Below are positions 18,716-61,429 of a DNA stretch of 64,000 bases, one piece after another. Numbering within the stretch: position 1 is the stretch's first letter; each line of letters starts with the position of its first letter. The notes under the pieces are model-generated. The model did not search any database and had not been told where the DNA came from. It saw only the letters and a program-made list of their open reading frames with translations. The DNA comes from Azolla caroliniana (Eukaryota > Plantae > Polypodiophyta). Both the position numbers and the translations under genes were made by a program. The stretch is from NCBI GenBank assembly GCA_043228905.1, contig JBHGNT010000002.1, forward strand, positions 10,540,001-10,604,000, in the 5' to 3' direction.

Positions 18716-18765
<50 letters not shown>

Positions 18766-24025: not shown

Positions 24026-24081
<56 letters not shown>

Positions 24082-33300: not shown

Positions 33301-33719
33301 TAACAATCATGGTAGATTGATAATGTATGTGTGATGATGATGGTAAGAGATCATGAAGAACAACACAAGCATTGAGGGGTGGGGGGTGGTGCCTAGGATG
33401 GCTCCACCCCCCTCCCAAGGGGGTTCAATGTAAGGGGAAAGAGAGAGAGAGAGAAATATGTCAAAGAGAGAGAGAGAGAGAGATTGGTTATATTGTTCCA
33501 TTCATTCATTCCCATAAGGGGTTAAATAGGTACAAAGGGGTAGATCCACAAGGGTGTAAGCCCCTTGGGCATTCACACCTAGTCACTCACTCACACCTCT
33601 TTGTATCCACCACACTCACACTCATAATCATATAAGATTACACATACATATCAACACATTACATCTTTCACCCTCACTTATCACACTTATCCATCACACG
33701 TACGTCTCGTACGGTAACA
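30395..33719 (-). mobile_element. Non-autonomous LTR retroelement F (no recognisable coding domain) inserted in copia E
   Basis: Near-identical LTRs at 30395-30872 and 33244-33719; TSD AGATG at 30390-30394 and 33720-33724; minus-strand PBS-like TGGCGACCAC next to 33244; low-complexity internal region. Orientation is tentative. Confidence 0.88.
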
Positions 33720-37600: not shown

Positions 37601-40600
37601 TCATTCTCTGTAGGATTTTGGACTGAGTTGCCTCTGCTTCGTGGACAGCCCGTGTGCTTCCGGTAGAGGCTCCACAGTGCGGTCGGGGCTGTGTGCGTGC
37701 GTGAGCATCGTGTGTGTGCGTGTTCGCCTGAGTTGGGTCCGTTGCCGGCTTGCCGGTTGTAATCGTTATTAATTTTGTAATTAAGACTTTGTTCTCTCTC
37801 TCTTTCCCCCTCTGCGTTTCTGCAAGCTGTTCTCTCTCTCTCTCTCTTCTTTCTCACGCTCCTTGGTTCAAGGCCCCCGCGGTCCCGCCTCTTTCCACGC
37901 GCGAAGAGCGTAACAACTCGACATATTTGGTGAACCCGACGTGAAACAGGCGGCAAAGGCGTGAAGGATGAGGGGATCCGAGCTTGCTGATGCTATGGCC
38001 GTAGCCATCGACAGGCTAGTGAGCGCTCGCGAGGGAACGGGTGCCCTCGACAGGGTCATTGAGTCGATCGTCGGCACCATAGGTCGATTCGGTGGGAAGA
38101 ATGCCATGAGCAACTTGGAGGCCTACCGGGCCGAAATGATCATGAGGGATATCGCGGTGGACAGGTGGTTGTCCAGATTCCCTCGGGTGGTGACGCCGAG
38201 CATCCACGCAGAGGTGCTCGAGGTGCTGGCGGATGCCAGACTTGGGAGGAGTTCGCGCTACGGCTCCTCGAGATGTATGGGTTCAATGACTCGCTTCGGC
38301 TGTCGAAGCGAGATTTCATGGCATGGGTTGAGAGCCCTGGGAAGGGGAGGAACATGTCGGCGCTCCTCCAGGAGTTTGAGAAACAGTTCGCACGACTGTC
38401 AACACTGAACCGGACCGGGCTCGACACAAGCCGGGTACTACTATTCGTCAAGTCGGTGGACGCCATGGACCGGGAGAAGGTGGGTCTCCTCTTGGAAACA
38501 GATGAAGGGCTCACGGTAGACTAGACCATGGTAAGGAGGGTTTGCGGTCATTTCGACAAGCGGCGCGAGTAGAGTGACGAGAGCTCGTCGGCGGCAAGGC
38601 CGGTCCCGACGAGGGAGCTCGAGGAGCCGGTGTCGATACCGGCTAGGAAGGAAGAAACTCGGAGTTGGCTTGAGATGGGCTCAGCCCCGAGCGGAGTGAT
38701 CAAAGGTCCCTCCGGAGGCGCGGCTCTAGAAGAGTTGTCGCAGAAGATGCGAGAACTCCAAATCGCACAGGCCCGGAGGGACAGCGGCGAACAGTCTTGT
38801 GATCGAAGGCCGCCGCTGGGGCAACGGTGCATGTGGTGCGATGCGGTCCGCCACATATGGAAAGAATGCGCGGATTTCGCCGAGGCACTCAGGACCAACG
38901 TGGTGTACCTCTGGAACGGGCGGGTGCACGCGAGTGAGACCCGGAAAGCCCTAGAGTTGAATACGGGGCGCAACGGAATGAAGCGGTTGATGGAAGAGGC
39001 CGCGGCGCGACATGCAGAGGCTGTTAACTACTCGGTGTCGACGGGAATCCGGGTCGGGGGTGATGAGCCCCGGAAAGCGAAGGACTCCGAATTCTGGCTG
39101 CTGGTGCTAGAGGGTCTCTCCGGAGTACGGCTGAAGAAGGAAGAGGCAGACCGCGTGGAACAACGGCTCCGGGAGGTCACCGGATGGGACGACCCGGTGG
39201 AAGAAAAGACTGGCTTCGTGGCAGCCGCATGCCAGAACTACGAGGTTCTGGTAGAAGACAAGCAAGCGGGAAAGACCGGAGGGGGCGACCCCTCGCAGCG
39301 GTACGAGACCGGTTCAGACCGAAGGCGAATGAGGCCGCCAACGCCGGCACACCGGAGAAGAAGAAGTAGGCCGGTTTCCAGCTGAGCACTGAAATCGAAC
39401 TAATAACGGACCTGCGGAAGGTCCTGGAAGAGAGAATTCTTGACAACAAGGTCAAGCTGTCGTTAGGGGAGGTGCTGGGAATCGCCAAGAAGGAGTTCCA
39501 TGACTCCATCGTGAACTTGGTGAAGCGGAAGAGGCTCTCGACGGAGCCGGAACTGGAGAGGCCGGTGGAAGTGCGGACGACGCACTTAGAAGACACGGCC
39601 CTAGAGGATGAGTTGGCAGAAAGCCACTACGCGAAGCCGCATTGGGCTAGGGCCACTACGGAAACCCCTGTTCGGATTGGTGACGTCCAGGAGCTGGTGG
39701 TCGCATTGGTAGACCACAGTTCGGAGATCAACCTGATGTCCATGGACTTCTATAAAAAGGGGAAATGGCCAATCAACACCAAGCACGAGTGGAAGATACA
39801 CGCGGCGACGTGCGCTCCAGAGGAGCTGCATGGTGCGTGCCTGAACGTACGCGTGATAATCAACGACATCGAGGTAGATCAATATTTCTTCGTGTAGGAG
39901 ACTTCCTCGCACCTGGTAATTCTCGGCGAACCGTACATTACGGCAGCACGCATGGAGACGAAAGTGCTGGACAACGGTTCGGCATATGCGCGTGTCAAGA
40001 GCCAAGACAGTTGGCATTCCATCCAATTCATGACAGTGTGACCCAACCACGAGCGAAACCGCAAGACCCTCGACGGAGACAACCGAGGGGATTTTTAGAG
40101 AGGGCTATCAAGGCGTGGGGCCGGGATAGTCCAAACACCCCGGAAGAACCCCACACATGTATTATAGGTAGGAAATTTTGGCTCTCTAAAAACAGAGATT
40201 GAACGTTAACCGACATCAGTAGCCAGGAGAGGAAGTAGGCGGAGAGACGACTTAGGGTGTGTGGAGTCCTCTCCCCCGATGAAGAAATTAGTGGCGCCGT
40301 GGAGGCGGTCTCTTTTGACGACACCTTGGGCGAATTACGAAAGGTGGTCGGTGAAGGCCTTAGCAAAGACCGGACCGTTCCGGTTAGCTCAATGTGAATG
40401 TACGAAGTCATCGTAGACTTCAGGGAGAGGATTGGGTCGAGTCGAACGACCCGTGTGGATACGAAGTATAAGACCGTGGACCGGAAGGTGAGGCCAGTTG
40501 CGACACCCTTGCCGGAGGGCAGTAGAGAGAGGATAAAAGGGGTAGCGTCGGACCCAAGTTTATGGAATCCAGCCGGCATAGGGCACCGGTTCACCGACAT

Positions 40601-43600
40601 AACGCTACGAGAGCTCAAGGTTGGTGGGGGTGGCTTTCTACTGCCAGAGGAGGAGGACCGGTTTCGGAGGATGCTCGGAAAGGCACAGGAAGGCCTTCGC
40701 ATTCTCGTTGGAGGAGATCGGGTGCATACCGCATGTGCCGTGGAATCTCAAACCGATTCCGGTGCCCAGAGCTCACATCCCGATTTTGATGGAGCTACTG
40801 AAGCAGAAGGTGGATATGGGCATCCTCGAACCGTCGAGTGCTCCATACTTGAATCGGTGGTTCACGGTGTCGAATACGAGTGTTTACTGGCGGTATTCAC
40901 ACTGTCCCTTTGGACAACCCAAGTTCGGGCTATTTCTGTAAATAGCATAAAGGGCAGTTGCCCTAGGATAGTCACTATATAAAGTGACTTTGTAACCTTT
41001 AGTAAAGGTTGGTTGTCATTTGTAACTGTTGCTATTAGAATATAACTTTTCCTTTGTGCCTCTCTCTCTCTCTCCCCCTCTGTGTCTATCTTGCTCGTGC
41101 ATACACAGGTTCTTCTTCATCATGAATGTTTCTTGCACTTCCGCATTGACGGCCTTGTCCCCAACATTTGGTATCAGAGCGTTGGAGGTTCTTCAACCCG
41201 TTACCAGCCATCATCGCACAACGCAACATTCTGTTTTTCGTTTTCTTTGAAGAACAAAGAAGGGAGAAGAAAAAGACAAGAGCTCGCATCTCACTGTGTT
41301 AAATCACAAATTGGAGTAAGCTAGTCGGTTGTTCTTTGTTCCTGTGATTGTAACCGCTTGAGGGGAGCTGCTTGAGCAACAACCGACCCAATCGTGCTTC
41401 ATTCGGTTAAACAACATCCGAATAGGTCATCGGACACTATTCACCCGCTTGCTCTAACCACCCGCTACAAATTGGTCTCCTGGCAACAACCACTTCGTGC
41501 TTCACTCGGCTGATCGACATTCAGGAGGATCAGTTAGATCCGTCCCTCTCATCGCTGCAATCATCCGAAGCAAAATTGGCCCAAACATTTGGTTTCCGGC
41601 ATACAATCGGAAGCTAACCGGGCTCACTCTGACTCGGCAACAGTTGGGAAGACCAACCGGTTCTGTCCCTCAAGTTACCGTAGTCACTCCGAGCAAGTTC
41701 AGCAACGAGTATCCGAAACCAAACCAACTCGGGTTCAAAACCGACTAGAACGATATCGGGTGAGCTGACCGGCTACACCCCACTAAGGTTCGTAGTCAAC
41801 CCCGAACCGAGTCTTACCAACCGAAACCGAAGCAGATGGCATCAACATCTGGCTCATCGGAGATGAGTCTAAGGAGGTTCGATGGTTCGAACTTCAACTT
41901 CTAGAAGGAACAAATGCAGGACTATCTCATAGTCAAGGGTCAGATAGACCCGATTGAGAATGAAAATCCTCTGGAAGCATACAAGGCAAACAAGTGGCTA
42001 AAGTTGGACAGAATCGTCCACGCCACGATTCGGATGCACTTGTCGGAGTCAGTGTACTTCACAGTGCAGTCATGCACGACAACGTTTGAACTTTGGAAAA
42101 CACTGTCGGAAACTTATGAAAAGAAGGTTGCTGCAACGAAGATGTATCTAATCCGGCGCCTCTACAACTTGTGGATGAAAAAATCCGATTCGGTTCAAGC
42201 TCACCTCAACGAGTATGAAAGCATAAGCTCCCAAATCTTGTCTCAGGGGACGGAAATTAAGGATGAACTCAGAGCAATGATACGCATGAGTCGTCTCCCC
42301 TCTTCATGGGAATCTTTCGTTACAACTGTGTGCAATGCTTCAACAACTGCCGTTAAGTACTCCGAAGTCACGAGCGCAATCCTGACTGAAGCAGCTCGGA
42401 GAAAGTCTTTCGCCAAAGACTCGGCAGATGAAGCTTACGTACTACAAGGTTCGACCGACCGATTGAACAATCGGGGAAGAAGTTCTTCCCGACCGTTGAA
42501 CAATCAGCGAAGCTAGAGCAAGTCCCGGGACAACCGAATCTGCAACTACTGCAAAAAACCGGGACACATCAAAGCCGATTGTCGGGCACTCAAAGCAAAA
42601 ACGGACAAAGCCCAGAGAACGGATCAGAAGAGTAGCCGGCATGAGGAGGTCAACTACGTCGGCTCTTTAGTCAAAATTTTGATGACCGACCCGAACATAC
42701 TGTCCATAGAGAACCCAGTTGAATCAGAAGTTCTGCTTACGACTGAGGAATCGAGCACATGGCTCTTGGACTCGGGCGCATTGTATCATGTGACACCTCA
42801 CCGATCTCAGCTTCGGCAATACTCAAACCGGCAGTCCGACTCAGTTCGAGTTGGAAACTCGTAGCACTGTGCTATAATCGGAATCAACACTGTAGAGCTC
42901 AATCTTCCGGGAGGCTCTACACTCGTACTACACAACGTCCGACACGTTCCTGAGCTCTCAAGACCCTTGATCTCAGTCGGACAACTTGACGAAGCCGGCA
43001 TCCGTGCCGGATTCTCATCAGGAGGGTGGACACTCCACAAAGGGAACCTCCTGCTTGCTCGAGGACCAAAGGTACATTCCCTGTATCCTTTATATGTCAC
43101 ACTCAAAGAGGGTGACTTATTTTTGGTTGATATCCCCGTGTCATCGTTATGGCACGGACAACTTGGACACCTCAGCAAGGCCGGCATAACGCACCTATCC
43201 AGAGCTTGTTACATCCCCAAAGTCTTCTTCTCGGATCACCAATTCTGCGAGCATTGCCAGTACGGCAAACAGGTAGCCGCATCACACCCGACATAAGCAC
43301 CAAGAGAATCGAGCCCACTCAATTTGGTCCACTCGGACGTCTGTGGGCCGATGCCACATCAGTCTCTCAGCGGTGCTTCGTACTTGGTCAGTTTTATTGA
43401 CGACTCGACTCGGAAGGTGTGGGCTTACCCTATCAGAACCAAAGATCGGGTGTTCTCGATCTTCTCTGAATGGCTTGCAATGGTCGAAAATCAGACCGAT
43501 CGGAAAGAATGGAATTGCTGAACGTTTGAATCGGACGATTCAAGAACACGTAGTATCCATGCTCCAACATTCCGGACTGTCGGATGGCTTCTGGCGGAGG

Positions 43601-45619
43601 CTCTACTTACGGCAGTACACATAATCAATATGTCACCAAGTAGACCTCTAGGACTTCAAATACCTCAGGAAATATGGACTGGCAGTAAGCCGATTTATGA
43701 CAAACTGAGGATCTTCGGTTGCGAGGCGTATGCTCTCATACCGAAAGACGACCGCCGGAAACTCAAACCAAGGTCGAGGAAATGTGTTTTTCTTGGATAT
43801 GGACCCGATGGCGATATCGGATACTGACTTTGGGACCCCGAGCACAGACAAATCGTCCGAGGTTCGGTCGTGTTCAACGAGTCGGCTATGCATAAAACAG
43901 ACGAAAGGCCTATTCAAGTCCGAAGGGTAATATTTTCCGAAGTGCCAACCCTTCATGACGACCCAACCCACAACACGAGATCGGTTTCACGGGTAACTGA
44001 CAACTCTCGCACCGAATCCACCGATTCGGCGGAGCCGAATGGCTCGGCTCTCGACCATCTGACATTGACACCCAGTGCGACTAGTCCAGTCATACCTCGC
44101 AGATTCGAGAGATTGTCGCAACCTCCGAGGAGGTACTCTCCCGGAATTTTCTTTACCGGCGCCGACGAACCAATGTCTTATGAAGAAGCATCGGCATCTG
44201 CCGATTCAGCCACATGGCATCTGGCGATGGTTCGGAAATGCACTCCATTCGGGCAAATAAGACTTGGGACTTGGTCGAATTACCAAAGAATGGACGTGCT
44301 GTTCCGTGTAAGTGGGTCTATCGACTAAAAGAGACGTCTGACTCGACCACGCCAAAGTACAAGGCCAGATTAGTTGCGAAGGGATTTCGACAAGAATATG
44401 GCATTGACTTCAACAAAATCTTTTCACCAGTGGTGAAAATGACGACCCTTCGTTTCATGCTCGGCGTCGTGGCCGCTGACAACTTGGAGCTGATTCAGCT
44501 AGATGTAAAAACGACATTTCTCCATGGTGACCTACAGGAGGAAATCTATATGGAGCAGCCGAAAGGCTTTGTGGCATCCGGCCAGGAACATCTAGTCTAC
44601 CGACTCAAGAAGAGTCTCTACGGCCTGAAACAGGCACCCCGATAGTGGTACCAGAAGTTTGACGACTTCATCCAATCGGTCGGCTTCTCAAAGAGTGATG
44701 AGGACCACTGTCTCTTCACCAAAACAGCTCAAGACGGGTCTCCCGTCTTCCTCATCATCTACGTAGACGACATGCTACTCTCCGGTCGGCATGCCGGAGA
44801 GCTCACTGAACTCGTTCGGAAACTGCGGTAGAAGTTTGCCATGAAGGACCTCGGTCCAACAAGACACATACTCGGTATGAAGATTAGTCGGCATTGCGAT
44901 ACACGACAACTTTTCTTGTCTCAAACCGACTACATCGGACGTGTCTTGGAATGCTTCAACATGCACTCGGCCAAGTCTGCTTCAACCCCGCTCCCCATCA
45001 ACCTTCGGTTATCTCAGCGAGACTGCCCGACATCCGGTCCGAAGGGGGAAGATATGAAGTCGGTACCTTATGCACCGACAGTCGGCTCCCTTATGTATGC
45101 GATGGTCGCGACACGACCTGATATTTCTCACGATGTAGGAGGGTAAAAGCATGCGAGTGGAAACACTATTATAGCTAATTAGCTACTAAAATGGCCATAG
45201 CTAATTAGCTATTTGTTTAGCTAGTCTTTCTTGTGGGAAAATCAAATATTTGAAAAACTAATTTATGAAAAAACTCAAATATTTGAACTTCTGTTTCAGA
45301 CGTAGTGGAACTTGGGGAATATCACCATCATCTAAGGTCGACTTCAATGTCATCAATTTCCTGTTTAGCCTAAGTCTGATTTTGAACGCAGATGGAGTAC
45401 TCAGAGCACGAACGCAGACGTAGCTCCCGCAACAGCAAAAAATCGACATTGCAGATTGAGAGCTACAACACAGAACCCGCTCGATCATCGTCCAGGTATG
45501 TTTCAGTTACAGAAACCCCAAACATTTGTTTTTTCTTTTTGACTACTGTCTAAACTTTGGTGCCGATTCATATTTCCCCAAAATCGAATAGGGCGAAGTC
45601 CTTGGAGTCCCATACAAGG

Positions 45620-48600
45620 ATGTCTCGCAAATCGGGGAGTAGCAACAGGTGTGTTTATATTACTTTTTTTGTGTTTAATCCTGTCTTTAGTGATTAGGGT
45701 TTGTGATTGAAATTTCTGATTAGGGTTTGTGATTGAAATTTCTGATTAGGGTTTTTGATTATAAATTTCTGATTAGAATTTCTGAATAGGGTTTCTGGTT
45801 ACAAATTTTGATTACAAATTAGAAATTTGATTACAAATTATGATTAGGGTTTCTGATTTGCTAAGTTAAAGATTTTGCACCATTTTTGTTGTTGTTGATT
45901 GGGGTTTTTGATTCTCACATATTCTGATTTTGCACTATTTCTGATTTCTGAAATGATATTTCAGATGGCTCGTTCCTCCGTATACGAGAGTGCTAAACTT
46001 CGCAAAATTTTGCGAGACAAAGGAGGACTTCCACAACACCTATGGTCTGTCACTCGAGGGTGTTGACCCTGCTGTCCTAAGTGATAAATTGATCAGTGAT
46101 ATAGACTGGACGACAGTATATACAGTGCCTAGAGTCAAAGGCAAGGTCAAGCTGAAGCATGTACGAGCCGACTTGTACGATGACTACATGAGACTGCACC
46201 AGAAAGTTCATCAGGAGATCCCAGTCAACAATGAGTTGTCAGTTTCATTTGCTAGAGCATTTGCATATGAGTACTGCAAAACAGCGAAGGAATCTAGAGA
46301 CCCTGAAATGTATAGGGTAGCTTGGGCAGTCTATGGTGAGGCATCGGTAAAAAGATGCCGAAAGATGGGGACCTTGGCACAAAAAATAGACAGATTTTGG
46401 AGCATGGCAGCTGTTGATGCAACTGCCGACTCCCAGCAAGACCGGGGGCATACACCACACCGACACCGAAGGAAAGCCAATGTCGATGATACAGGTGAGA
46501 CATTGGTTAGCTATATGCTAAAAAATGTCCATGAAGCCTGTGAGACATTGGCATTTTTTAAGACTGATTTAGAGAAAGCCACAATGGCTTCTGCAATGGA
46601 GAGCAAAGTTACTTCTGCTGTTACAACAATTAGAAATAAGATTCAGGTAACTATTGTTTTGCTGGTATGTGATTGTGTTATAAATAACGGGTAAAATGTG
46701 CTAATCAAGCATTATCTGGAATAGGTTGCGCAACAGGAGCTTGAATTAGAGGGGCCACTGGATCCCCAGCGTAAAATAGAACTGCAAATAGAGATCCAGG
46801 TTCTTTCAATGAACCTGGACCTTCTAGGTGTAAATACTGTTGCAGATTACAATTTGGAGAAGCTTCAAGTAAGTTAACGATTCCTGAGCAAAGTTGGTGT
46901 ATCTTTCAACAACAAGAATAATTAATCGGTAAATTTCTCTGTTGCGTTGAAGGAACAATACATTCATCAAGAACAGGTAGTTAGCTGCCTTAAGAAGAAG
47001 CTACATTTTGTGGAGGGAATGGTAAGGACCAGACAGGATTTGGACCTGAACATTCTTGCTCCCTTACCAAATGAAGTAGAACCAGAAAATGATTTATTGA
47101 CAGTTCAAGCACGTTGCATCGCTTGCGGGTTAGGTGTGGAGGACAAAACTGCGTCTTTGTTGGTTCACCTACAACCATGCAACCACACATACCATCTGCT
47201 TTGTTTTCAACATGCCTGTCGAATTGCTGCATTCTGTTTGGGAGATTGCAGTACAACTCTACCAAATGAGTGGAGAAAACAAACAGGTATACCATACTGT
47301 AGCTAATAAGCTTAGTCTTTTCTAATTAGCTATCCTACTAGCTAATTAGCTACTGGCAGCTAATGAGCTACTAGCTAATTAGCTATCCTAGTAGCTAATT
47401 AGCTATGGTACTAGCTAATTAGCTAGTACCATAGTTGTGTAAAAAAGCTAAATAGCTATCCTACTAGCTAATTAGCCACTGGCAACTAATTAGCTATCCT
47501 AGTAACTACTTAGCTACTGCCATAGTTGTGTAAAGTAGCTAATAAGCTATCCTAGTAGCTAGTTAGCTATGGTACAAGCTAATTAGCTAGTACCATAGTT
47601 GTGTAAAAAAGCTAATTAGCTATCCTACTAGCTAATTAGCTATCATAGTAGCTAATTAGCTACTGACATAGTTGTGTAAAGTAGCTAATAAGCTATCCTA
47701 GTAGCTAGTTAGCTATGGTACTAGCTAATTAGCTAGTAGCATAGTTGTGTAAAATAGCTAATTAGCTATCCTACTAGCTAATTAGCTACTGGCAACTAAT
47801 TAGCTATCCTACTAGCTAATTAGCTATCCTACTAGCTAATTAGCTATCATAGTAGCTAATTAGCTACTGACATAGTTGTGTAAAGTAGCTAATAAGCTAT
47901 CCTAGTAGCTAATTAGCTACTGGCAGCTAATTAGCTATCCTAGTAGCTAATTAGCTACTGGCAGCTAATTAGCTGTCCTAGTAGCTAATAAGCTATCCTA
48001 GCTACTACATAGTTGAGAAAGTAGCTAATTAGCTTTCATTGTAGCTAATTAGCTATCCTAGCTACCACCATAGTTAGTAAAGTAGCTAATTAGCTATCCT
48101 AGCTACTACCATAGTTAGTAAAGTAGCTAATTAGCTATCCTAGCTACTACCATAGTTGAGTAAAGTAGCTAATTAGCTACCATAGTAGCTAATTAGCTAT
48201 CCTAGCTACTACTATAGTTGTGTAAAGTAGCTAATAAGCTATCCTACTAGCTAATTAGCTATCCTAGTAGGTAATTAGCTATGGTACTAGCTAATTAGCT
48301 AGTACTATAGTTGTGTAAAAAAGCTAATTAGGTATCCTACTAGCTAATTAGCCACTGGCAACTAATTAGCTATCCTAGTAACTAATTAGCTACTGCCATA
48401 GTTGTGTAAAGTAGCTAATAAGCTATCCTAGTAGCTAATTAGCTACTAGCAGCTAATTAGCTATCCTAGTAGCTAATTAGCTATCCTACTAGCTAATTAG
48501 CTACTACCATAGTTGAGTAAAGTACCTAATTAGCTATCCTACTAGCTAATTCGCTACTACCATAGTTGAGTAAAGTACCTAATTAGCTATCCTACTAGCT

Positions 48601-49592
48601 AATTAGCTACTGGCAACTAATTAGCTATCCTAGTAGCTAATTAGCTATCCTACTAGCTAATTAGCTGCTGGCAACTAATTAGCTATCCTACTAGCGAATT
48701 AGCTATCCTAGCGAATTAGCTATCCTAGTAGCTACTGCCATAGTTGTGTAAAGTAGCTAATAAGCTATCCTAGTAGCTAATTAGCTACTGGCAGCTAATT
48801 AGCTATCCTAGTAGCTGATTAGCTACTGGCAGCTAATTAGCTGTCCTAGTAGCTAATAAGCTATCCTAACTACTACCATAGTTGAGTAAAGTACCTAATT
48901 AGCTATCCTAACTACTACCATAGTTGAGTAAAGTACCTAATTAGCTATCATACTAGCTAATTAGCTATTGTACTAGCTAATTAGCTATCCTAGCTTCTAC
49001 CATAGTTTAGTAAAGTAGCTAATTAGCTATCCTAAATAACTGTCATGTTATTGTAGAATCTTGTGGATTAAGGACGGCACATGATGTGTCTGGTGCTGAT
49101 GATGCTGCAACAGATGAGGATACTACTGCCAATGTGGCTGAAAGTAAGAGTCCTGCTATCACATCTCCTTCAGATCAGCTGCACCCTATTCTTTTGGAAC
49201 AGTGTACTGAATTAGGCAACGATGTGAAATGCCATGAAATAGTGGAAACAACATGTAAAACTGAGGTTCACAACAACAGTGTTTATGAACACTTGATGCA
49301 ACATTTCTTCGAGTCTCAAGACCTTGATTCCACCCCACCGAGCCCAACTACTGAAAATGTCCAAACAGATCCCTCTGTACTTGAAAAGCTAGTTCAAGAA
49401 ACGGCTAATGTGCAATTAGCTGCTGAGGCGATGGGAAGGTTGTCGGAGGAGGACACACTTGCGCATTGGGTCCTAGAAGCAAGGCTAAATGGGGAACCAA
49501 CCAGAAAAAGGCTGAAGAAGGGGCCACGATCGGGAACAAGACCAGTTACTCGGTCAAGGGGCCCAGACGTAGTGGAGCGAAATACTGTTTAG
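45620..49592 (+). CDS. Transposon cargo gene: coiled-coil plus RING-H2-like protein (exons 45620-45648, 45965-46646, 46725-46868, 46953-47286, 49057-49592; ~574 aa)
   Basis: All four GT-AG junctions are phase-compatible (2,0,0,1) with no stops; C-x2-C-x17-C-x-H-x2-H-x2-C-x10-C-x3-C in exon 4; acidic tail ending in a basic NLS-like RKRLKK. Confidence 0.72.
45691..45860. repeat. Short repeats containing telo-box-like ATTAGGGTTT in cargo intron 1
   Basis: tgattagggtttgtgattgaaatttc repeated at a ~26-bp period, then decaying. Confidence 0.7.
47299..49033. repeat. Array 1 of the 14-bp palindrome TAGCTAATTAGCTA, filling cargo-gene intron 47287-49056
   Basis: Many tens of copies separated by a small set of short linkers (TCCTAG, TCCTAC, CTGG, CATAGTTGTGTAAAG). 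Confidence 0.97.
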
Positions 49593-49841
49593 TTGGATAT
49601 GATTGTTAGCTTAGGGATTTTGCTAGGGTTTTATGAAGTTTTACTATCCTGTTGGACAAGTAAAACCTCAGATTGGTTGTTGCTTGATCCACATTATGTA
49701 ATGGAACTCTATGATGTTTTTCCAAGATAATTTGAAGAGTGTTGTTCTATGACTGAAACTCTTTGATGTTCATGATATTGTTTTGTGAGACTATTAGTTA
49801 CTTTGTGAGTGTGAATATGTTGGTGTTTTCTGATGTTGCAG

Positions 49842-50896
49842 AGTCTAAAGGGTTTGATTCTATTGCTCGTAAGGCCAATGGCAGTGTGGATACTGTTGAT
49901 GTTGCGGCATGTTTAAAGGGCCCCATCTTGAAAGTAGATGTAGCAACTGACACAAGTGATCTGGTCACACAAGTTGATCAAGCATGTAGCACGGATGACT
50001 TGGTGTTGCAGGTAGATGCAGCATGTAGCACGGATGACTTGGTGTTGCAGGTAGATGCAGCATGTAGCACGGATGACTTGGTTTTGCAGGTAGATGCAGC
50101 ATGTGATACCAGTGGACTGATATCGAGCAGAACAGTAGCTACATGCACTGAGGTAATCCAAGGATTGATAACTAAGTCGACAAAACAAGAGCACCAGAAT
50201 GTGAAGCTAGGCCCAACACAGTCGACTAGGGGTTTAAAGAGGAAAAGGACACCAGTTGTGTCAGCCGAACCTGAGCTGATTGAGATTGATCGTATCCTAC
50301 CAGAAAATGGTGTAACAGCGGCTCAGTTTCAGGAATGGAAACCTAAACCACTAGAAGTCGAAAGAAGAGCCTTGATCTTGGAGCTGGATAAAGTCTTGAT
50401 GAGTGTGAGATATATGCAGCCAAGGAGGGACGCAAATCAGTTTCTAGAGTGGGCTGTGGAGTACTTTGATTTGTTTATTTGGAGTGAAAAACCAAAATCA
50501 GATGTGTGGAAGTGTTTGGCAAGATTCTTCCCAAAATGGCGAAGTCGTTTTAAAGGTCAATGGGCACGAGGAAATTGTGAGCAGATGGAAGCTGCAAGAT
50601 TCAAGAGACTTTCTGATTTTTGGGCTACTTGGCCTGAATATAATGCTGACAATACATTGATTTTGGATACAGAACATTTCCGACACTACTTCAATATTCG
50701 GAGATGCTGTCTCATTCTACCCGAGGAAATGCCTGAACAGTACTTGGTGCAAACAGTGAGCTGCCAACTAGGTGCATGGTTGTGGACTCCATACCGAGCT
50801 CAATATGCGGATAATATATGTAGACTCGTTCCACTGACTAGCAAGAGCTTAGCTGTTTATAGGAGATTTGTAGACATTTCCAATGGTAATTTATAA
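49842..50896 (+). CDS. Cargo exon/ORF with FCP1/SCP (NIF, HAD-fold) phosphatase-like domain, catalytically degenerate
   Basis: LILELDKVL (vs LVLDLDETL), RRDANQFLEWAVEYFDLFIWS, KRLSDFW..YNADNTLILD. Phase-1 acceptor TTGCAG| at 49841; preceded by 13-aa repeats and LKRKR. Confidence 0.68.
49955..50110 (+). repeat. 39-bp coding repeat (DLVLQVDAACSTD x ~4)
   Basis: Visible in the ORF translation and in the DNA. Confidence 0.9.
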
Positions 50897-51063
50897 ATAT
50901 GTAAAGAGATGACATTATTCAATGAAGAATTTAATTACTTGTTCCCACTGTACTTATCTACTGTGTAATTTGAGGAATATGTTGCAGATTGTTGATTTCA
51001 TTCTATTGATGACTATTTAGTTATTGACAGCTAATTAGCTGCATTTGTACAACTAATTAGCTG

Positions 51064-51577
51064 CATTTGTACAGCTAATTAGCTGCATTTGTACAGCTAA
51101 TTAGCTACTGATGACTATTTCGCTATAACTTATAACTTAAAACTTAACAAAAAAGACATGATTTTATTGAGAAAGAAGCACAGAAAGCAGACTGTATACA
51201 AGAAATTGATTCCAAACGAATTTATTGATCTGTTTTTGCGAAATACATGTTTGTTTTACAAGAGAACATGGTAAGTGCTACTTGTAGCTACAAATTCCAT
51301 GGCATACTATTGTAAATACATTTGTACAGCTAATTAGCTGCATTTGTACAGCTAATTAGCTACTGATGACTATTTCGCTATAACTTATAACTTAAAACTT
51401 AACAAAAAAGACATGATTTTATTGAGAAAGAAGCACAGAAAGCAGACTGTATACAAGAAATTGATTCCAAACGAATTTATTGATCTGTTTTCGCGAAATA
51501 CATGTTTGTTTTACAAGAGAACATGGTAAGTGCTACTTGTAGCTACAAATTCCATGGCATACTATTGTAAATACATT
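51064..51577. repeat. 255-bp tandem duplication including the transposase stop codon and 3' UTR
   Basis: ctacaaattccatggcatactattgtaaatacatt occurs at 51288 and 51543, with near-identical sequence on the left of each copy. Confidence 0.9.
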
Positions 51578-54500
51578 CATACACATTAGCACCAACAGTG
51601 TATAAACCGGAGCAGCTATTGTATTCTGACATTGGGACGTTGATGCATCTGACCAAATGAGAGTACATATACGCCGCTGGTTTGTCTTCTAACAGCCTGT
51701 ACACATATTCGTAGTCATCTAGTTTTGCATAAAAAATGCCTTCGATGTAGAATGTCCCGGCAGATACAAAATTTCCCCATGCATCTACAATATTCTGCCT
51801 TGCACACTGTTTACTAACCGTGCACTTTAATATATAGAAATCAGCACCCTCTGAATTGCCTTCTTCAGCATTTACAGCGAAGTTATCCCCAACGTTCAGG
51901 ACATCACTCAAAGTATCTCCAAGTCCCTCATATGTGAAGTCAGCATTCTGCCCTGTTTCTCCATCAACTGCTTCCTTATCATTCAGAGTGTGATACTCCC
52001 AATTCTGAATGTATGCTTTGTTTAGACAATATCTCCAATTTCCCTGCACACAATGGAAGCAAAAACAAGTCAATTCTCTAACCGCAATACAATGACCATC
52101 CAACCTGGAATAACCGCGAACAGCATGCAGAGATCGCAATTCGGGAATTCCTTGGCACTCCCAGGTCTTCTCCCTATTTACTTCATCTATCTTCACTTCC
52201 CAAAATTCACGTTTGATATCTCGAACTTGCGAGGAATAAACACCTGTGGCACTCGTCGACATATTTGTTCTTAAAAATTCAACTACATGTGATGCACAAT
52301 TCATGTGCACACCATCTGTCTTTAGTTGTTCATGGGTAAGTGCCCGCTTTATAACAGCCCCTGCACCATCATGTTCACCTTTACCATGGCCAGACCCAAA
52401 AAAATTCCATCTCATCTCCAAACCTGTTATAGCAGGATACCTCCCCACAAAATAAAATGGACGTCGAGCCTTGAATTGTGACGCAGCTCCGTCAGACCAG
52501 ACCCAATGTTGAGTAAGCTCCAAACGTTGAGCTAATAACCACTGCCAATGTAACTTAAAACAGTGTTGGACGAACAAGGTATCATGCTTCTTATCATCGG
52601 AAATAAAGAAATGAATTACTTTTTTAACATCACCTGAAACTCGAAAATATGTTATGTGCACAAAAATGGTTACCTGAACTGAACACCAATGCATAGATTG
52701 AATTTCATTCTGCTGCTTGAAAGTATAATTCTCTGCGAAATCTACTACTGAGACTACTACATCATTTGGGAAATCAGATATGCAAGTCTTAAACTGATGG
52801 GCCTGCCATGAATAAATGAAGTTGTGTTTAATGAACTTTCCTAGAGATACTACAAACAGAGACACCAAATCCCTTGGTTTAAGCATCTTCCGAACTAGAT
52901 CCTTTCTTTTACACACCTTTCCTTCGAAATTGGTGTTCACTGACTCAAATAACTTCACAGAGATCAATATTTCACTACTCAATTCATTTGGACACCACCT
53001 AAATCTAGTAGGGCCACAATCTTGACATAAACCCATGACACATTTATGAATATGGAAGATAGCGTCAGATTCTCTCGGACACAATATTGAATCTAATAAA
53101 TAACTCATGGAAGAGATAACGTGCTCAGATGATTTACACTCCTCTTGCGGGCTTGATCGACAGATTGGGCACCCACATGTGCAAACTGTATTAGTTAGGG
53201 ATGCGCTATGGTGACGTAGTAGATTAACAGAGTCCTTCAGAAAACCCATCTGTACATGGTAAATGCAACAACATGTGTATCGATCCTTTAAGTGTCTCAC
53301 AAAGTGTGGCTTAAGAGACTCGAATGTTCGTAGTTGAACTTTGATAGTTGGATGCATTCGTTTGAACCTAATAAATAAATCGACCTGCGTAATAAAGGGG
53401 AATTAGTTATTCTCGTAACTAGCTAACTATCCTAGTAGCTAATTAGCTATTCTAGTAGCTAGTTAGCTATTCTAGTAGCTAATTAGCTATCATGGTAGCT
53501 AATTAGCTGTCCTAGTAGCTAATTGGTTGTCCTAGTAGCTAATTAGCTATCATGGTAGCTAATTAGCTGTCGTAGTAGCTAATTAGCTATCATGGTAGCT
53601 AATTAGCTGTCGTAGTAGCTAATTAGCTATCATGGTAGCTAATTAGCTGTCCTAGTAGCTAATTAGCTGCTCTAGTAGCTAATTAGCTATCATGGTGGCT
53701 AATTAGCTTTCCTAGTAACTAATTAGCTATCATGGTAGCTAATTAGCTTGTCTAGTAGCTAATTAGCTATCATGGTGGCTAATTAGCTTTCCTAGTAACT
53801 AATTAGCTATCATGGTAGCTAATTAGCTGGTCTAGTAGCTAATTAGCTATCGTGGTAGCTAATTAGCTGGTCTAGTAGCTAATTAGCTATAATGGTGGCT
53901 GATTAGCTTTCCTAGTAACTAATTAGCTATCATGGTAGCTAATTAGCTGGTATAGTAGCTAATTAGCTATCGTGGTGGCTAATTAGCTGTCCTAGTAACT
54001 AATTAGCTGTCCTAGTAACTAATTAGCTATCATGGTAGCTAATTAGCTGGTCTAGTAGCTAATTAGCTATAATGGTGGCTAATTAGCTATCCTAACTAAT
54101 TAGCTATCATGGTAGTAGCTATTGAGAGTAGCCAGTTACCTATGTAGTAGCTATCATAGTAGCTAATTAGCTATCATGGTAGCTAATTAGCTTTCCTAGT
54201 AGCTAATTAGCTGGTAATAACGAAATAGCTAACTAGCTACCATGATAGCTAACTAGCTAGCAGTACAACTAATTATCTGGTAGTACCTAAATTAGCTATT
54301 GAGAATAGCTAATTAGCTATCATGGTAGTAACTATTGAGAGTAGCTAGTTACCTATGTAGTAGCGATCCTAGTAGCTAACTGAGGTAAATGTAACTGATA
54401 AGCTAATTAGCTTTTCTGCTAACTGAGCTAATTAACTTTCCGAGTAGAGTCAAAACAAATGTTGAGATAAATGTAAATACCTGAGGTACATCAAGAAGAT

Positions 54501-55230
54501 GAATGGGATGCTCCTCGTATTGATTTCTTCCAACACGTTTCCTGCATAAATCCTTTTTATTGGGTGAAACCCTACTCTCATTAGTCCAAAACATTGTGAT
54601 TACATCCTTGATTTCAAATGTTATGGGTGTCATTGGCTTACATCTTGTAGTTAGCTTTAGTAGACTAGTTCCTTCACCCGAGGAAATTATACGGTTCATT
54701 GTATTGTACACTGTTTTTCTACTAACACCAATTACCTTAGATAGCTCACTGATGTTTATATCGTCAACATCACTATTAAGTAACATCATTAGACTAGACC
54801 TTTTTAAGACAAGATCATCTTCTGACCTGCTCATGGATACGAAACTATTACGAAGATTATTTACTAAAATAGATGATATGTTTGCATTAAGACCATCACA
54901 ATCAACTAAGTCCTTTATCGATGGATCATTACATATTCCATAAAGTACTACCTTCTTTTCTTCATTGCTGATGTGCTTGGTTTGAACATTGAAATAGTCT
55001 ACAACCTTTCTCTCTATGATGGTAGTCGCATTACTTACATTCTCAGCTAAACTATCCTTACCTTTACTGAGTGTGGCTTTCGTATCCTTCAACAATTGAC
55101 GATGTTTCCTTTTTTTTTCTGCCCAATAGTTTCGTATGGCTTGTTGTGTCCTGATAACATCATCCCTATCCTTATGATCATTGAGGGGTAATTCTAAACA
55201 CCCTTCTTCCCCTTCCATTTGGCTAGACAT
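51543..55230 (-). CDS. Sola2-like DDD transposase, two exons (54481-55230, 51543-53384), ~863 aa
   Basis: CAG|GTATTT donor and ACGCAG|GTC acceptor join in phase 0 (HLLDVPQ|VDLFIRFKRMHP). Motifs CCCIYH, VDFAENY..NEIQSMHW, WSDGAASQFK, FFGSGHGKGEHDGAG and CFCFHC. No stops. Confidence 0.85.
53418..54430. repeat. Array 2 of the palindrome TAGCTAATTAGCTA (mostly 20-bp period), filling transposase intron 53385-54480
   Basis: Units such as aattagctatcatggtagct and aattagctgtcctagtagct run in strict 20-bp register over most of the intron. Confidence 0.97.
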
Positions 55231-55562
55231 GTTAAAACCCTAAATTTCCAGAAAAAAAAACAAGTATTAAAGATGGCTATGGGCAACAACAATACACAAA
55301 AATATTCCACACAATACACAAGATTAGACACAACAATACACAAGATAATCAATAGACAGAAAAGTTATTGCAATCCAAGACCGAACAGTAGAGGATTTCA
55401 CTCTGTTGGATCCAACAGTTGAGGAGGCGATCCAAGACCGACCAATGGCAACAACTGAGTGTAGAATGTTGCCGTTGGATGAGTGAACTCCGTCAAATCG
55501 AAATGTGGAAGCAATTCGGGACTGGACAGTAGTGGCAACTGAGTATAGAATGATGGCAATGG

Positions 55563-56219
55563 AGGAGAGAACCCCGTCAGATTGAACAGTTACCGATGAT
55601 GCTTGAAACGCACATAGAAGGCACTTGAGAATAGAGTGGCATAGAGAAGAGAACCCCGTCAGATTGAACAGTTACCAATGATGCTTGAAACGCACAGTAG
55701 CGGCCCCTGAGTGAGAGTGGAAAAGAGAAGAGAACCCCGTCAGATTGAATAGCTCTTTGATTATGCTTGGAACGCACAGTAGCAACCCCTGAGTGTAGAG
55801 TGGCAAAGAGAAGAGAACCCCGTCAGATTGAATAGCTCTTTGATGATGCTTGGAACGCACAGCAGCGGCCCCTGAGTGTAGAGTGGCACAGAGAAGAGAA
55901 CCCCCTCAAATTGAACAGCTCTTTGATGATGCTTGGAACGCACAGTAATGGCCCCTGAGTGTAGAGTGGCACAGAGAAGAGAACCCCCTCAGATTGAACA
56001 GCTCTTTGATGATGCTTGGAACGCACAGTAATGGCCCCTGAGTGTAGAGTGGCACAGAGAAGAGAACCCCGTCAGATTGAACAGCTCTTTGATGATGCTT
56101 GGAATGCACAGTAGTGGCCCCTGAGTGTAGAGTGTCACAGAGAAGAGAACCCCGTCAGATTGAGCAGCTCTTTGATGATGCTTGGAACGCACAGTAGCGG
56201 CCCCTCAGTGTAGAGTGGC
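55563..56219. repeat. 83-bp tandem repeat (~8 copies) upstream of the transposase gene
   Basis: GAGAAGAGAACCCCGTCAGATTGAACAGCTCTTTGATGATGCTTGGAACGCACAGTAGCGGCCCCTGAGTGTAGAGTGGCACA; the spurious ORF starts recur every 83 bp. Confidence 0.95.
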
Positions 56220-59200
56220 GGCAGGTGGACTCGATAGGGTTTAGCAACAGTGGTAGCAACTAACCCACAGTACTCAACTAGAGATGGCCTATGTGATGTG
56301 GCAAAGGATCATGCATAATGGACCTAGGAATTCGATATATAATTTATGGTACACATTTATGGTGCACACATCAATTTATGTTGCACATTTATGGCACTCA
56401 TTTACATATGTAATTAAAACACTCTAGTATTTTCAATGGTAGTTTTTTGCATACTTAATTTATTAATGATGGCTTTTTACTAAAATGACTATTTATCAAT
56501 GGTAGCTTTTTGCATAGCTAATTAGCTATGTCAAGGACATAGCTAATTGTTTCCACTCGCATGCTTTCACCCAGGAGTCATCAGCAGATTCATGCACAAC
56601 CCCAACCGATCGCATTGGAACGCAGTCAAGCATGTGTTCAGATATCTAGCTGGCACAAAAGACCACGACATTCTCTTTGGTCCGAACTCAACCTCAGGCG
56701 TAGTCGGTTACACCGACTCGGACTTCGCCGGCTGTGTGGACAGTTGGAAATCAACTACTGGATACTGTTTCAAATTCGGCAATGGAGCAATCTCGTGGAA
56801 GTCAAAACTTCAAGAGTGCACAACCACCTCAATGACCGAAGCAGAATATGTAGCCACGTCCGACGTGGCAAAAGAAGCCTTATGGCTCGGTCGGTTGGCG
56901 CACACATTTTGATAGGTCGACTTCGACTCGGCTCCAGTTGTCTATAGCGACAGTCAGGGTGCTGTTGCTTTGTCAAAAAATCCGGTTCACCACAATGCCT
57001 CTAAGCATATCGATGTTCAATATCACTTCGTTCGGGACTGCGTCATTTTAGGGAAAATCGGTCTGAAGAATATATCCACAACCGATAATGTTGTAGATGG
57101 AATGACCTAGTGTCTTTCGGCGGATAGTTTCCGGTCCCTTCGGCACCAGATGGGCGTAACGAAAAATCGGTCTGATTAAAGTCAGACACACAGCATAGGA
57201 TGGTTTCGGACCACCGACATCGGTTCTCTAAGGATTGGCTTCAGCTCTTCCGACCCGACCAGTTCGGTCCTCTATCTTTGGATCTTGCCGACTCTGACAA
57301 AACCGATCTGTCCAATAAACCTTGTATATATATACCTGTAATTCTCTAGATAACCCATGTATACGCCCATTATGGGGGAGTGTCGAATACGAGTGTATAA
57401 TGGCCGTATTCACATTGTCCCTTTGGACATCCCAAGTTCGGGCTATTTCTGTAAATAGCATAAAGGGCAGTTGCCCTAGGATAGTCACTATATAAAGTGA
57501 CTTTATAACCTTTAGTAAAGGTTGGTTGTCATTTGTAACTGTTGCTATTAGAATATAACTTTTCCTTTGTGCCTCTCTCTCTCTCTCCCTTTGTGTCTAT
57601 CTTGCTCGTGTACTAGGTTCTTCTTCATCACGAGTGTTTCTTGCACTTCCGCATTGACAGCCTTGTCCCCAACACACGGTGCCAAAGAAGAACAGCATGT
57701 TGCGCTTCATACAGGACCTACAACCGGTCAACAAGGTGACCATCCGTAACGCAGGAATCAGGCCGACCATAGACGAGTTTGCGGAGGCCTTCGCCGGAAG
57801 GTCGATCTATTCGATCGGTGACTTATACTTGGGGTACGACCAGTTCCAACTAGCCGTAGAGAGCAAGGACATCAGTACAATGCGGACTCCTCTCGGTTTG
57901 GTGCGGATGTGTACCCTACCGCAAGGAGGAACGAATTCAGTGGCGCACATGGTGAATGCAATGAACAAGGTGTTGAGGGACTGCATCCCGGACATCACTA
58001 TGCCGTTCCTAGACGATGTACCGATAAAAGGGTGTCAGGTGGAGGATGCAGACAAAACGGTCGGCCCGGACGGATGCCGGAGGTTCGTCGTGAACCACAT
58101 CAATGATTGTGATAAGGTGCTGCAGAGGCTGGAGAGTGCGCGACTCACCTTCTCCGGAGAGAAATCAGCGTTCGGGTAGACGGAGATCCTGGTAGTCGGA
58201 CACTTGTGTGGGCCCTATGGCCGGAAACCGTCCCCGGCAAAGGTAGAAGCCATCTCCGTGATGAAGGACGATTGCGGGTCAGTTACGGAGGTCCGCAGAT
58301 TCTTGGGTGTGTGCGTGTTCTACCGCATCTGGATTCCGCACTACGCACATGTTGCGGAACCGCTCTACGGGCTATTGAAGAAAGGGCATAGGTTCGAGTG
58401 GAGGACGGAGCACACGGAGTCGGTCCGGAGACTGAAGGAGGCGCTCGCCGCGGCACCGGGTCTCCGGAAAGCGGTTTACTACAAGGAAGTCCCCATTTAC
58501 GTGATGGTGTACACGAGCCCGACTGGGATGGCGAAGGTATTGAGCGAGCGGCAGCGAGGATAGGCCCAAGTTAAGCGCGAGCTATGGGGTATCTTTTCGG
58601 CTGTTAAGGCCGACAAAGACTATCTGATCGGGATGGAAGTAATCATCGAGACGGACTGCCTACCGATTCTGGGTTTAGGGTTTTCGGATGCGCAACTCCG
58701 GACCTGGTGATGCTCAGGTTGATCGCGTACACCAAGTCCCTGAATCCGGAGATATGACACATCTCCGGGAAGGATAATGCCATGGCCTATATGCTTTCAA
58801 GGGCGCGGTTCAGCGACGAGGACGACACGGTTTCGGATAACGAAGAAGTCGGCGAGGACTTCTTCGGGTCAACAAACGTAACAAGAAGAAAGGCAAGCAC
58901 TCCGGCGCTTAACGAGTTCGACGAGAGTGAATATGACGAAGAGTGGCTCCGAATCGGGAGGTTCCTACGGACGATGACCCTGGAAGCGGCGTGGACGAGA
59001 GAAGAGGTCTGCTAGGTGCAGAAGAAGGCGTACCGGTTCTTCCTATAGGAAGGGCGCATATGGAAGCAACCGAATAAGCGAAGCGGCACCCCACTCCACG
59101 TAGTGGCGAGGGAGGACAAGCAGAAAGTGCTGCTTATGGCGTACCACGAGAGTCCTTGGGCCGGACACCGCGGGATATGGGCCACATTCGAGAAGCTGAA

Positions 59201-61429
59201 GGGGAAGTACTGGTGGTCGGGACTATACCGAGACGTGCATCGGTTCGTAACGACTTGCGAAAGCTGTCAGATGCACTCCATAGTCCAACATCGAGACGAG
59301 CTTCACCCGACCTACCCTCCGACCGTCCACTTCAAGTGGATGGTGGATCTGGTGACGATGCCGATGGGGGTAGGGCAGATGCGATATTTGGTGCTGGCTC
59401 GGGAGGACCTGACGAACCAGGTGGAAGGCCGAGCGTTGTAGAACAAAATGACCGCGGCTGTGTGTCGGTTTCTAATCAAAGATGTGGTATGCCGATACGG
59501 GTGCGTCGGCAAGATCGTGCCCGACCGCGGAGAACTAGACATGCAAGAGGCTGAAGAGCTGTTTGACTGGCTAGGGGTTAAACTCTCGCTGACCACGGCG
59601 TACAATCCGGAGGCTAACGGAAAGGTGGAATGCGGACACAGACCAATCGTCAAAGCGTTAGTACGGGCGTGTGGAGGCCAAGTCGAAAATTGGCCGCGTC
59701 TCTTACCCTATGCGTTGTGGGCGGACCGGACTACGCACAATTCGGTAACGGGGTTCATGCCGGCGGAACTAATGTACGAGCAGAAGCTGATCATGCCGGT
59801 GGAACGAACAATTTCTTCGTGGGCCGCGGTGGGCTGGAAGGACGAAATGAGCCGGGAAGAGTTGTTGGCGGCGCGGATCCGGCAACTTGAGTGGAGGCCG
59901 GAGGACGTGGAATGGGCGAAGGATAAGCTGCACGCGGCAAGGGAACGAAACAAAACCCGGTTTGACCGGACACACCAGCTACGACTGAGGAAGGCGACTG
60001 GGTGCTGGTTTACGAAAGTAGCCTCGACAACCAGCACAAGGCGACCCACAAATTTGTGAGGAGATGGTTCAGGCCCTACACGGTGACGAGCACGAACGAC
60101 AATGGCACGTACCATCTGGCAGAGCTTGACGAGACACAATTGGCGGTGCCGGTAGCCTGGAAGCGGATTAAAGTGTTCAAGAAGAGGTACGAAGACGAGC
60201 CAGGGCGGGGGAGCGATATCAACGACGATCAGTTCGGGGACGCCGATAATTCGGAGAGCGACGAGTGAACGGGAGCCGGTTTTCTCCAGTATCTATCCCT
60301 CTCCGGCGCATACCGGTGGATGCGCGGTTTGGTGGGGGTGGATCTCGTGAAGAAAACCGGCTAGAAGCGGAATCGGCGAAGCAAAGCGCGTGAACTGGGC
60401 CTACACTTTTCCACGCCAATTAATACCTTGTATATAACTAGGAGTAGGACGGTGGGTGTAATTAGACTAGATGTGACGCATTGAATGTCTAGGAAATCAA
60501 AGAGTATCTTTGTTCGAAAGGACAGAGAATAAATTGATGAAAACGAGGGTGCAACGGCCTGCCTCGACGGCCTATAAAAGGGAAGGAAGAAGGCGGATAA
60601 ATACATTGCGTTTTGGGAGCGAGGACGAAGTCCTGTCGGACTGGGACTGAGCTCTCTCCTCCATCGTTCGTCATTCTCTGTAGGATTTTGGACTGAGTTG
60701 CCTCTGCTTCGTGGACAACCCATGTGCTTCCGGTAGAGGCTCCATAGTGCAGTCAGGGCTGTGTGCATGTGTAAGAATCGTGTGTGTGCGTGTTCGCTTG
60801 AGTTGGGTTCGTTGCCGGCTTGCTGATTGTAATCATTATTAATTTTGTAATTAAGACTTTGTTCTCTCTCTCTTTCCCCCTCTGCATTTCTGCAAGTTAT
60901 GCTCTCTCTCTCTTCTTTCTCACGCTCCTTGGTTCAAGGCCCCCGCGGTCCCGCCTCTTTCCACGCACGAAGAGCGTAACAACTCGACAACGTACTATAC
61001 AAATGATGATGTACTATACGTATTTAAATGTTCAATACGGGTATGTAAAAAACCATGATACCAACACAGAGGAACCGACGGATCGAGATGCGCTGGAGTC
61101 ATAACAACAAAGGAGCTGAGATGGGCCTTCTTAGTAGACAAGCCGACCGAGAAGGTCGAGGTGCACGGGACCTGATGGGTCGTGGAAAGCAGAACCGGAT
61201 GGGTCAAGGAGATTGAATGGAAGATTCTGGTATGCCAACATCTGAAGGAGAGACGAGTATCCACGTGACCGGTACAATCAAGAATACGATCAAAAGAGAG
61301 GAACAGAACGAAGGTATCCTGATTGGCAACCACAATCGACGGCACAAGTGCCACAACTTGGAACAAGATTATTGACATGGCCCAGACACCAACAAGGCAT
61401 TGCCGGAGGGTGACATAATACATCTAGAA

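Follow-up and report, generated by a model that had tools for sequence, protein, structure and literature searches.

Family-specific motif arrays in predicted introns of a two-gene Sola2-like transposon from the fern Azolla caroliniana as candidate sites for an element-encoded protein

Why would one short palindrome be multiplied inside introns of two convergent genes and recur at the ends of the transposon that carries them? The question arises from a 64-kb stretch of the fern Azolla caroliniana (GenBank assembly GCA_043228905.1, contig JBHGNT010000002.1, 10,540,001 to 10,604,000 of the forward strand; hereafter the window, within which all positions are numbered), which holds a Sola2-like DNA transposon with a transposase gene on the minus strand and a convergent accessory gene on the plus strand. 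An earlier note on this DNA had placed two palindrome arrays in phase-compatible introns of the two genes and proposed that the motif acts as a dimeric protein-binding site or a hairpin unit. By analogy with better known plant transposons, we give a probability of roughly 55% to the reading that these family-specific arrays of a 12-14 bp motif are dense binding sites for a protein encoded by the element itself, the binder being, about equally likely, a domain of the accessory protein that we call domain A or the helix-turn-helix (HTH) region of the transposase.

Allowing at most one mismatch, the 14-mer TAGCTAATTAGCTA occurs 98 times in the window and always within the element: 59 copies lie in a predicted intron of the accessory gene (intron A, array 1), 34 in the predicted transposase intron (array 2), two at the left end (45172 and 45198), one at the right end (56515), and two in the spacer between the convergent 3′ ends, while the exons (5,368 bp) and four short introns hold none. 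With two mismatches the count rises to 121, a single copy lying outside the element. By chance, an exact 12-mer would be expected ~1e-4 times per 160-bp end and 0.002 times in the 52.6 kb outside the element. The distribution described in the earlier note, i.e., both ends and the 3′ spacer with essential absence elsewhere, is therefore confirmed, as are the intron boundaries (GT at 47287 and AG ending at 49056, plus strand, phase 1; GT at 54480 and AG ending at 53385, minus strand, phase 0), and since palindrome cores extend over 98% of the length in intron A and 89% in the transposase intron, to say that the arrays fill these introns is apt. The exact 12-mer was not found in 78 other loci (695 kb); a tandem motif pair had 0 matches in viral contigs and one in prokaryote genomes, in a cyanobacterial chromosome, which we take as chance. 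Short contigs of the DNA sequencing run X3 match the left-end palindromes only, with mixed flanks, and array copies and outside-family copies are indistinguishable among them.

Both arrays have a modal period of 20 bp (38 of 71 spacings in array 1 and 31 of 39 in array 2), TCCTAG occurs as a linker in each (15 and 6 copies, respectively), and they have eight distinct 24-mers in common, no 30-mer; array 1 additionally has 18-, 33-, and 41-42-bp units. The common period, linker, and 24-mers point to one ancestral 20-bp monomer followed by separate higher-order growth, so that the different linker sets and periods claimed before are upheld for the higher-order structure and given up for the modal period and TCCTAG. 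That a conserved core lies within more variable linkers is borne out: with units picked by linker, core uniformity was 0.85 and 0.91 versus 0.49 and 0.66 for the linkers (the latter lowered somewhat by variable spacing), and the core also came out ahead with units anchored on a half-site. One 12-mer with differing flanks is found in five non-coding compartments. The frequency of CG per C is lower in the arrays (0.010 and 0.046) than in exons (0.105), which could reflect methylation avoidance and equally deamination or repeat composition.

Removal of both arrays by splicing is predicted, and for the transposase intron the prediction is well supported by homology, because the donor position is conserved in relatives and the predicted proteins P0041 and P0053 join the identical two transposase halves. 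Related loci were taken as the best 80 of 346, and 21 junction-bearing sequences, window included, were inspected; a phase-0 GT donor lies at the identical codon in 19 of these and one codon earlier in L013, while L028 has no phase-0 GT donor at this site. One lineage has an intron of 89-92 bp and others have one of 0.3-1.9 kb, while in one clade the frame reads straight through (e.g., L030). The resulting two-exon model on the minus strand has 863 aa, and its catalytic-region residues are invariant in 37 homologs. Adiantum, Ceratodon, Calypogeia, Cryptomeria, and Taxus are the sources of named homologs.

For the accessory gene, contigs of two runs that we guessed to be RNA (X19 and X20, one study, from a relative ~95% identical to the window) show GT..AG joints at introns 45496-45591, 45649-45964, and 46647-46724, which are not joined in DNA run X3; this confirms transcription and the 5′ gene model for a close relative, and the coding sequence of homolog P0130 continues over exon 2/3. 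Coverage by the guessed-RNA contigs is of low depth and reaches parts of both genes, with no contig spanning an array-intron junction. Spliced accessory contigs exit the window sequence at 46768, where the relative's transcript runs into unrelated sequence in both X19 and X20, i.e., a truncated or chimeric copy is transcribed there. Further downstream, the exon with a NIF/FCP1-like domain is probably the 3′ part of the same gene, and one polypeptide running domain A-coiled coil-RING-NIF is likely, since a phase-1 donor at 49144 and an acceptor at 49843 would join the parts and homologs hold them in one chain (domain A and NIF in P0201, P0271, and P0283, with RING too in two; P0201 and P0271 are Adiantum models). 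The near-identical models P0201 and P0247 diverge just past the RING, near the window exon end, a hint that the position of intron A is conserved too. The RING-like finger is weak in Pfam and matches P0201 at E 3e-10, and the NIF domain has a degenerate motif, reading ELDKV where the DxDxT of NIF/FCP1-like phosphatases is expected.

Domain A itself (~145 aa) had 146 HMMER matches and an AlphaFold2 model of high predicted confidence (pLDDT, predicted local distance difference test, 94), and no Pfam family matched it in the window protein. Fold searches of the PDB with Foldseek and VIA gave no clear match (with the domain by itself VIA reached Z 2.6 at best, and other matches were coiled-coil only), which does not imply a new fold; BFVD likewise held no clear match, a PDB sequence search returned only coiled-coil noise, and the Atlas language-model search with the window domain gave uninformative matches. 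With the L013 homolog as query, Atlas pointed to Transposase_32/ATHILA ORF1 at 0.86 and 0.83, below the threshold of 0.9. Five gene models (P0194, P0199, P0264, P0268, and P0282) combine domain A with domains from host genes or retrotransposons that have no relation to it (beta-propeller, gag, LTP, nucleotidyltransferase); these are probably mis-joined models over insertions, possibly captures.

In the relatives, the layout persists and the motif changes. In a tree of 43 of 81 sequences, unnamed relatives only, the window sits in a 13-row clade (97/87) of six lineages, and each of the six has a motif of its own that forms an intron array and recurs at a terminus or in the 3′ spacer: introns, both ends, and 3′ spacer (the latter as seen in the window) in window/L001; intron, terminus, and 3′ spacer in L002; intron and 3′ spacer in L004/L005 and in L006/L008, with the motif repeated in the spacer of L004, L006, and L008; intron and terminus in L007; and a different intron and terminus in L048/L061, where the conserved site holds an 89-bp intron and the array is placed in another. 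The top 9-mers of the intron motifs form an almost diagonal 11x11 matrix, with some likeness between sister pairs (TAATTAG in window/L002, TAGCAT in L004/L005, GTACCAA in L006/L008). Families have a conserved outer terminal inverted repeat (TIR) in common and differ in the motif behind it, and a central hairpin similar to that at the right end has other motifs on its flanks in L002 and L007. A conserved sequence of the form ATGTC..GACA lies just inside the transposase-side TIR in three families (L002:1814-1845, L007:70-90, and window 56529-56541), again with the family-specific motif on its flanks.

When termini were compared with their own arrays by repeated 8-mers in the five loci having a candidate terminus and an intron array (L048/L061 being one family), five of five exceeded dinucleotide shuffles (0, 10, 23, 8, and 15 of 1000), and arrays of other families mostly did not. 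These ends are candidates drawn from similarity to the window TIR, because an automated search for TIRs with target-site duplications (TSDs) in 30 long loci gave chance-like pairs only. Between families the HTH region is 17-41% identical versus 40-66% for the catalytic core; shared descent alone could explain this faster divergence as well as the sister-pair likeness. The convergent two-gene layout is old, as L013, L027, L051/L052, L064, and L067 have a domain A gene that follows the transposase downstream on the other strand (the profile was built with L013 and L067 and found the others) and the NIF part is present in L004 and L007. In the more distant L064, TAATGGTTAAA is repeated upstream of the transposase and between the two genes (3355-4066 and 13701-13945), one motif in two compartments.

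We favor the binding-site reading because what stays conserved is the layout, i.e., an own motif dense in introns, at ends, and in the spacer, as in VANC21. In this mechanism, a motif present at both ends and in the 3′ spacer would have been amplified by tandem duplication inside the two predicted introns, where arrays could grow because only introns and spacers allow a higher site density without frame damage. The bound protein would label the element as self and sustain its expression and mobility, either by countering DNA methylation or by activating transcription in the manner of VANC, TnpA, and the AtMu1 transposase, and concerted turnover of the arrays would let motif and protein diverge together between families.

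The layout matches that of the VANDAL21/VANC21 and VANDAL6/VANC6 anti-silencing systems of Arabidopsis. A family-specific short motif forms tandem repeats there that lie within introns, between genes, and in terminal regions, just as the motif of the window element does (PMC5735166, PMC10398659), the sites undergo rapid concerted change and need density for binding (PMC5735166; PMC10398659), and an accessory gene stands beside the transposase. In contrast, VANDALs are Mutator-like with degenerate TIRs and the window transposase is Sola2-like, VANC carries DUF1985/DUF287 and the window protein domain A without a Pfam family plus RING and NIF, and in the window family the motif is palindromic. 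DUF1985 and DUF287 were not among the 25 of 46 Pfam families listed for 46 domain A homologs. No transposase of the Mutator-like type was found, and exon 2, for which no Pfam family appeared at E<=0.5, has Sola2-type motifs; by this analogy, the element would work like VANDAL/VANC without being a member.

Two other systems offer partial parallels. Spm TnpA and the AtMu1 transposase are sequence-specific activators at terminal motif clusters (bioRxiv 10.64898/2026.08.24.746577); they resemble the proposed mechanism in that an element protein acts on dense family-specific clusters and the transposase itself can bind, and differ in that their sites cluster at termini and TnpA hypomethylation is terminal, whereas the window copies are mostly internal. 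The plant mobile domain (PMD) proteins MAIN/MAIL1 with PP7L likewise combine a transposon-associated domain and a phosphatase-type partner with a DNA motif and anti-silencing, and PMD is described as structurally like the DUF1985 of VANC (PMC7156037, 10.1101/2024.09.27.615353); domain A, however, has no PMD match in Pfam, and the window phosphatase is of HAD/NIF type with a degenerate motif. Membership in Spm/CACTA was considered and rejected on the GGG termini and 4-bp TSD. CACTA elements have CACTA termini, a 3-bp TSD, and a TnpD transposase.

Several points count against the binding-site reading. First, the DNA-binding role of domain A is drawn by analogy, since no Pfam family matches the domain, and the sub-threshold likeness of L013 to Transposase_32/ATHILA ORF1 is the sole lead on it. 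Second, tandem growth needs no selection, as arrays arise in any non-coding part of these elements, two examples being the motif-free 83-bp array of the window and a microsatellite-like tract in L046. Third, three of 11 long introns (L015, L017, and L064, all outside the window's clade) have no array by Tandem Repeats Finder, and the long-period intron repeats of L013, L027, L028, and L039/L042 are not above chance outside the intron. Finally, the shuffle test was designed post hoc, after matches had been seen, and the L002 array also overlaps the termini of other families (9-17 bases).

In a possible, though in our view doubtful, alternative, the motif matters at the ends only, as a subterminal transposase site, and the internal arrays are neutral, having been seeded by templated gap-repair copying, expanded by slippage, and kept where splicing hides them. 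The element is indeed array-prone and bears unrelated repeats, several relatives have no intron arrays, concerted homogenization could give core uniformity, and the middle of the array is rearranged between the window and L001 while the exons are 97-98% identical (734/750 and 1780/1839). Neutral growth fits less well with the finding that in all six clade lineages the expanded unit is the terminus or 3′-spacer unit, in different introns, and that the core is fixed across five compartments while flanks vary.

The TAATTA core of the motif resembles homeodomain sites, and an unlikely alternative is that a host transcription factor recognizes the motif, which would have been amplified to act as an enhancer within introns and drive expression in a chosen tissue. 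The TAATTAG core common to the window and L002 and the copies just upstream of the accessory transcript would suit such a factor, but sister families of the same clade use the unrelated motifs AGGTGAAAA, AGTACCAAA, and TAGTACTAA, and a co-diverging element protein therefore fits better than one host factor.

The hairpin half of the earlier proposal has weakened, because most sister-family motifs are not palindromic, while protein binding gains from the core uniformity, the five compartments, and the relatives' own motifs. RNA of the transposase intron, over 601 nt, folds strongly (-267 kcal/mol, z -19.5), as expected of any palindrome array, and bases in perfect palindromes of at least 10 bp make up 27% in the window versus 2.6% in L002, 0.6% in L007, 1.9% in L006, and 0% in L039. 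Both arrays have one orientation on the plus strand, so that each pre-mRNA is complementary to the other along the 20-bp unit, and tandem repeats can be a source of small interfering RNA (PMC10398659). Even so, we consider it very improbable, and the least probable of the alternatives, that the introns act through folding or through pairing of convergent pre-mRNAs into double-stranded RNA and small RNAs with a silencing or regulatory effect on the element, as palindromy is not maintained in sister families, single end copies outside the transcripts would have no RNA role, Rfam gave 0 matches, and such RNA may be a host-exploited side effect rather than a selected function.

As to classification, the element is Sola2-like on three features. 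It has a 4-bp TSD (AGGA on both sides), short TIRs of 25 bp that start GGG, as candidate ends of relatives do too, and DDD transposase motifs of the Sola2 type. Bao et al. 2009 reportedly describe Sola2 TIRs as carrying a G-R-G terminus. The motifs were compared by eye with part of the Repbase Sola2 alignment given in additional file 10 of PMC3627910, and their order agrees (SR..P..KD, F..L.P, C.C.YH, DFAENY.F..Q.EIQS.HW, SDG.ASQFK, WNFF..HGK...DG.G..VKR); PMC3627910 also gives a 4-bp TSD for Sola2, which the window element matches along with the short TIRs, and the failure of exon 2 to match Pfam parallels what is reported for Sola (PMC5751038). The window clade (land plants) is set apart from those Sola2 elements by its conserved intron, by the accessory gene convergent with the transposase, and by the motif arrays. 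The TSD AGGA differs from the AT-rich TSDs given for amoebozoan Sola2 in PMC3627910, and Fanzor is the sole Sola2 passenger gene that we met in the literature searched.

Sequence-specific transposon anti-silencing has been worked out in Arabidopsis and in maize, in Mutator-like and Spm elements. We tentatively suggest, again by analogy, that the fern/bryophyte Sola2 clade may hold a third, independently evolved transposon-encoded system of this kind, in which a protein with the unclassified domain A as DNA-binding part, RING, and a catalytically degenerate RNA polymerase II C-terminal-domain-phosphatase-like domain would read the arrays of its own family in introns and at the ends, motif and protein co-diverging. 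If true, a matching architecture in another superfamily and in seed-free plants would indicate a recurrent solution, and six or more natural motif/protein pairs would be at hand for studying motif-protein co-evolution. The land plants would in any case have a conserved two-gene Sola2 clade with a 145-aa domain that is modelled as well folded and has no Pfam family. Plant Sola2 elements of this kind were not described in any paper that we found on plant, fern, moss, or liverwort Sola transposons, accessory genes, and intron or subterminal repeats, with Repbase entries and subscription journals outside the scope of the search.

Table 1. Features of the Sola2-like element, in window positions
Feature	Positions	Strand	Basis or remarks
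Whole Sola2-like DNA transposon, 11,432 bp	45141..56572		TIR pair and AGGA duplication; Copia split; other-flank contig from 45141
Left TIR, 25 bp, GGG terminus	45141..45165	+	24/25 identical to right TIR
Two subterminal palindromes	45172..45211		~50 bp upstream of RNA contig start of plus-strand gene (45258)
Accessory gene, 5′ part (exons 45620-45648, 45965-46646, 46725-46868, 46953-47286)	45620..47286	+	domain A, coiled coil, RING-like finger; upstream 5′ intron 45496-45591
Predicted intron A, array 1	47287..49056	+	72 cores at <=2 mismatches; periods 20, 18, 33, 41-42; phase 1; splicing predicted from phase and homolog architecture
Exon after array 1	49057..49592	+	open to stop at 49590-49592; internal phase-1 donor GTAAGA at 49144; predicted splice form
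Exon with 39-bp coding repeat, basic stretch, and NIF/FCP1-like phosphatase domain	49843..50896	+	Pfam NIF E 1.2e-6; E 4e-21 to P0201 C-terminus
3′ spacer between convergent genes	51028..51362		five exact 12-mer cores in 22-bp units, within 255-bp duplication
Transposase exon 2, 613 aa	51543..53384	-	Cys-rich region, DFAENY, SDGAASQFK, HGKGEHDG; motif order as in Repbase Sola2 transposases
Predicted transposase intron, array 2	53385..54480	-	40 cores, period 20; phase 0, conserved position in relatives
Transposase exon 1, 250 aa, HTH-like region	54481..55230	-	Pfam HTH_11 E 5.8e-5, below cut-off
83-bp x8 array upstream of transposase	55562..56219		repeat detection; 92% matches, without palindrome
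One full and one partial subterminal palindrome around ATGTCAAGGACAT hairpin	56515..56548		motif search
Right TIR, transposase side	56548..56572	-	24/25 match to left TIR

The AGGA duplication (45137-45140 and 56573-56576) marks a single insertion with both ends, which interrupts the reverse-transcriptase region of a Copia element, and one contig of run X19 starts exactly at 45141 with a different flank. The outer GGG(T/G)NN(N)AGCA of the right TIR is common to the candidate ends of L002, L007, L015, L018, L035, L046, L048, and L061. On the central 4.4 kb of the element, DNA run X3 has 3,468 contigs (842 at >=99% identity, 915 at 95-99%, 1,133 at 90-95%, and 578 lower), whose number and identity spread indicate a large and diverse family, contig depth not being equal to copy number; parts of the examined stretch are present in 20 of 22 listed runs.

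Within the element, the telobox-like TAGGGTTT is repeated five times at 45691-45852 in a short intron of the accessory gene, and nine of its 13 copies in the window lie inside the element, one of them adjoining the transposase ATG. The surroundings are nested at three levels (37275-60989): the Sola2-like element lies in the Copia element (matching long terminal repeats, LTRs, at 40867-41166 / 57380-57674, 94.7% identical), and the Copia in a Gypsy-like element (LTR match 37275-37923 / 60345-60989, 93.4% identical). Elsewhere in the window, two very young LTR elements, each with 100% identity between its LTRs, are adjacent at 7304-14320 and 14332-25428; the former has an unbroken 1,479-codon frame at 9440-13876 and the latter is split by a minus-strand LTR element (LTRs 18573-19056 / 23883-24372, 98.2%). 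At 30394-33719, 479-bp direct repeats (99.4%) surround a 2.4-kb CT-rich interior with no clear gene, possibly a non-autonomous LTR element.

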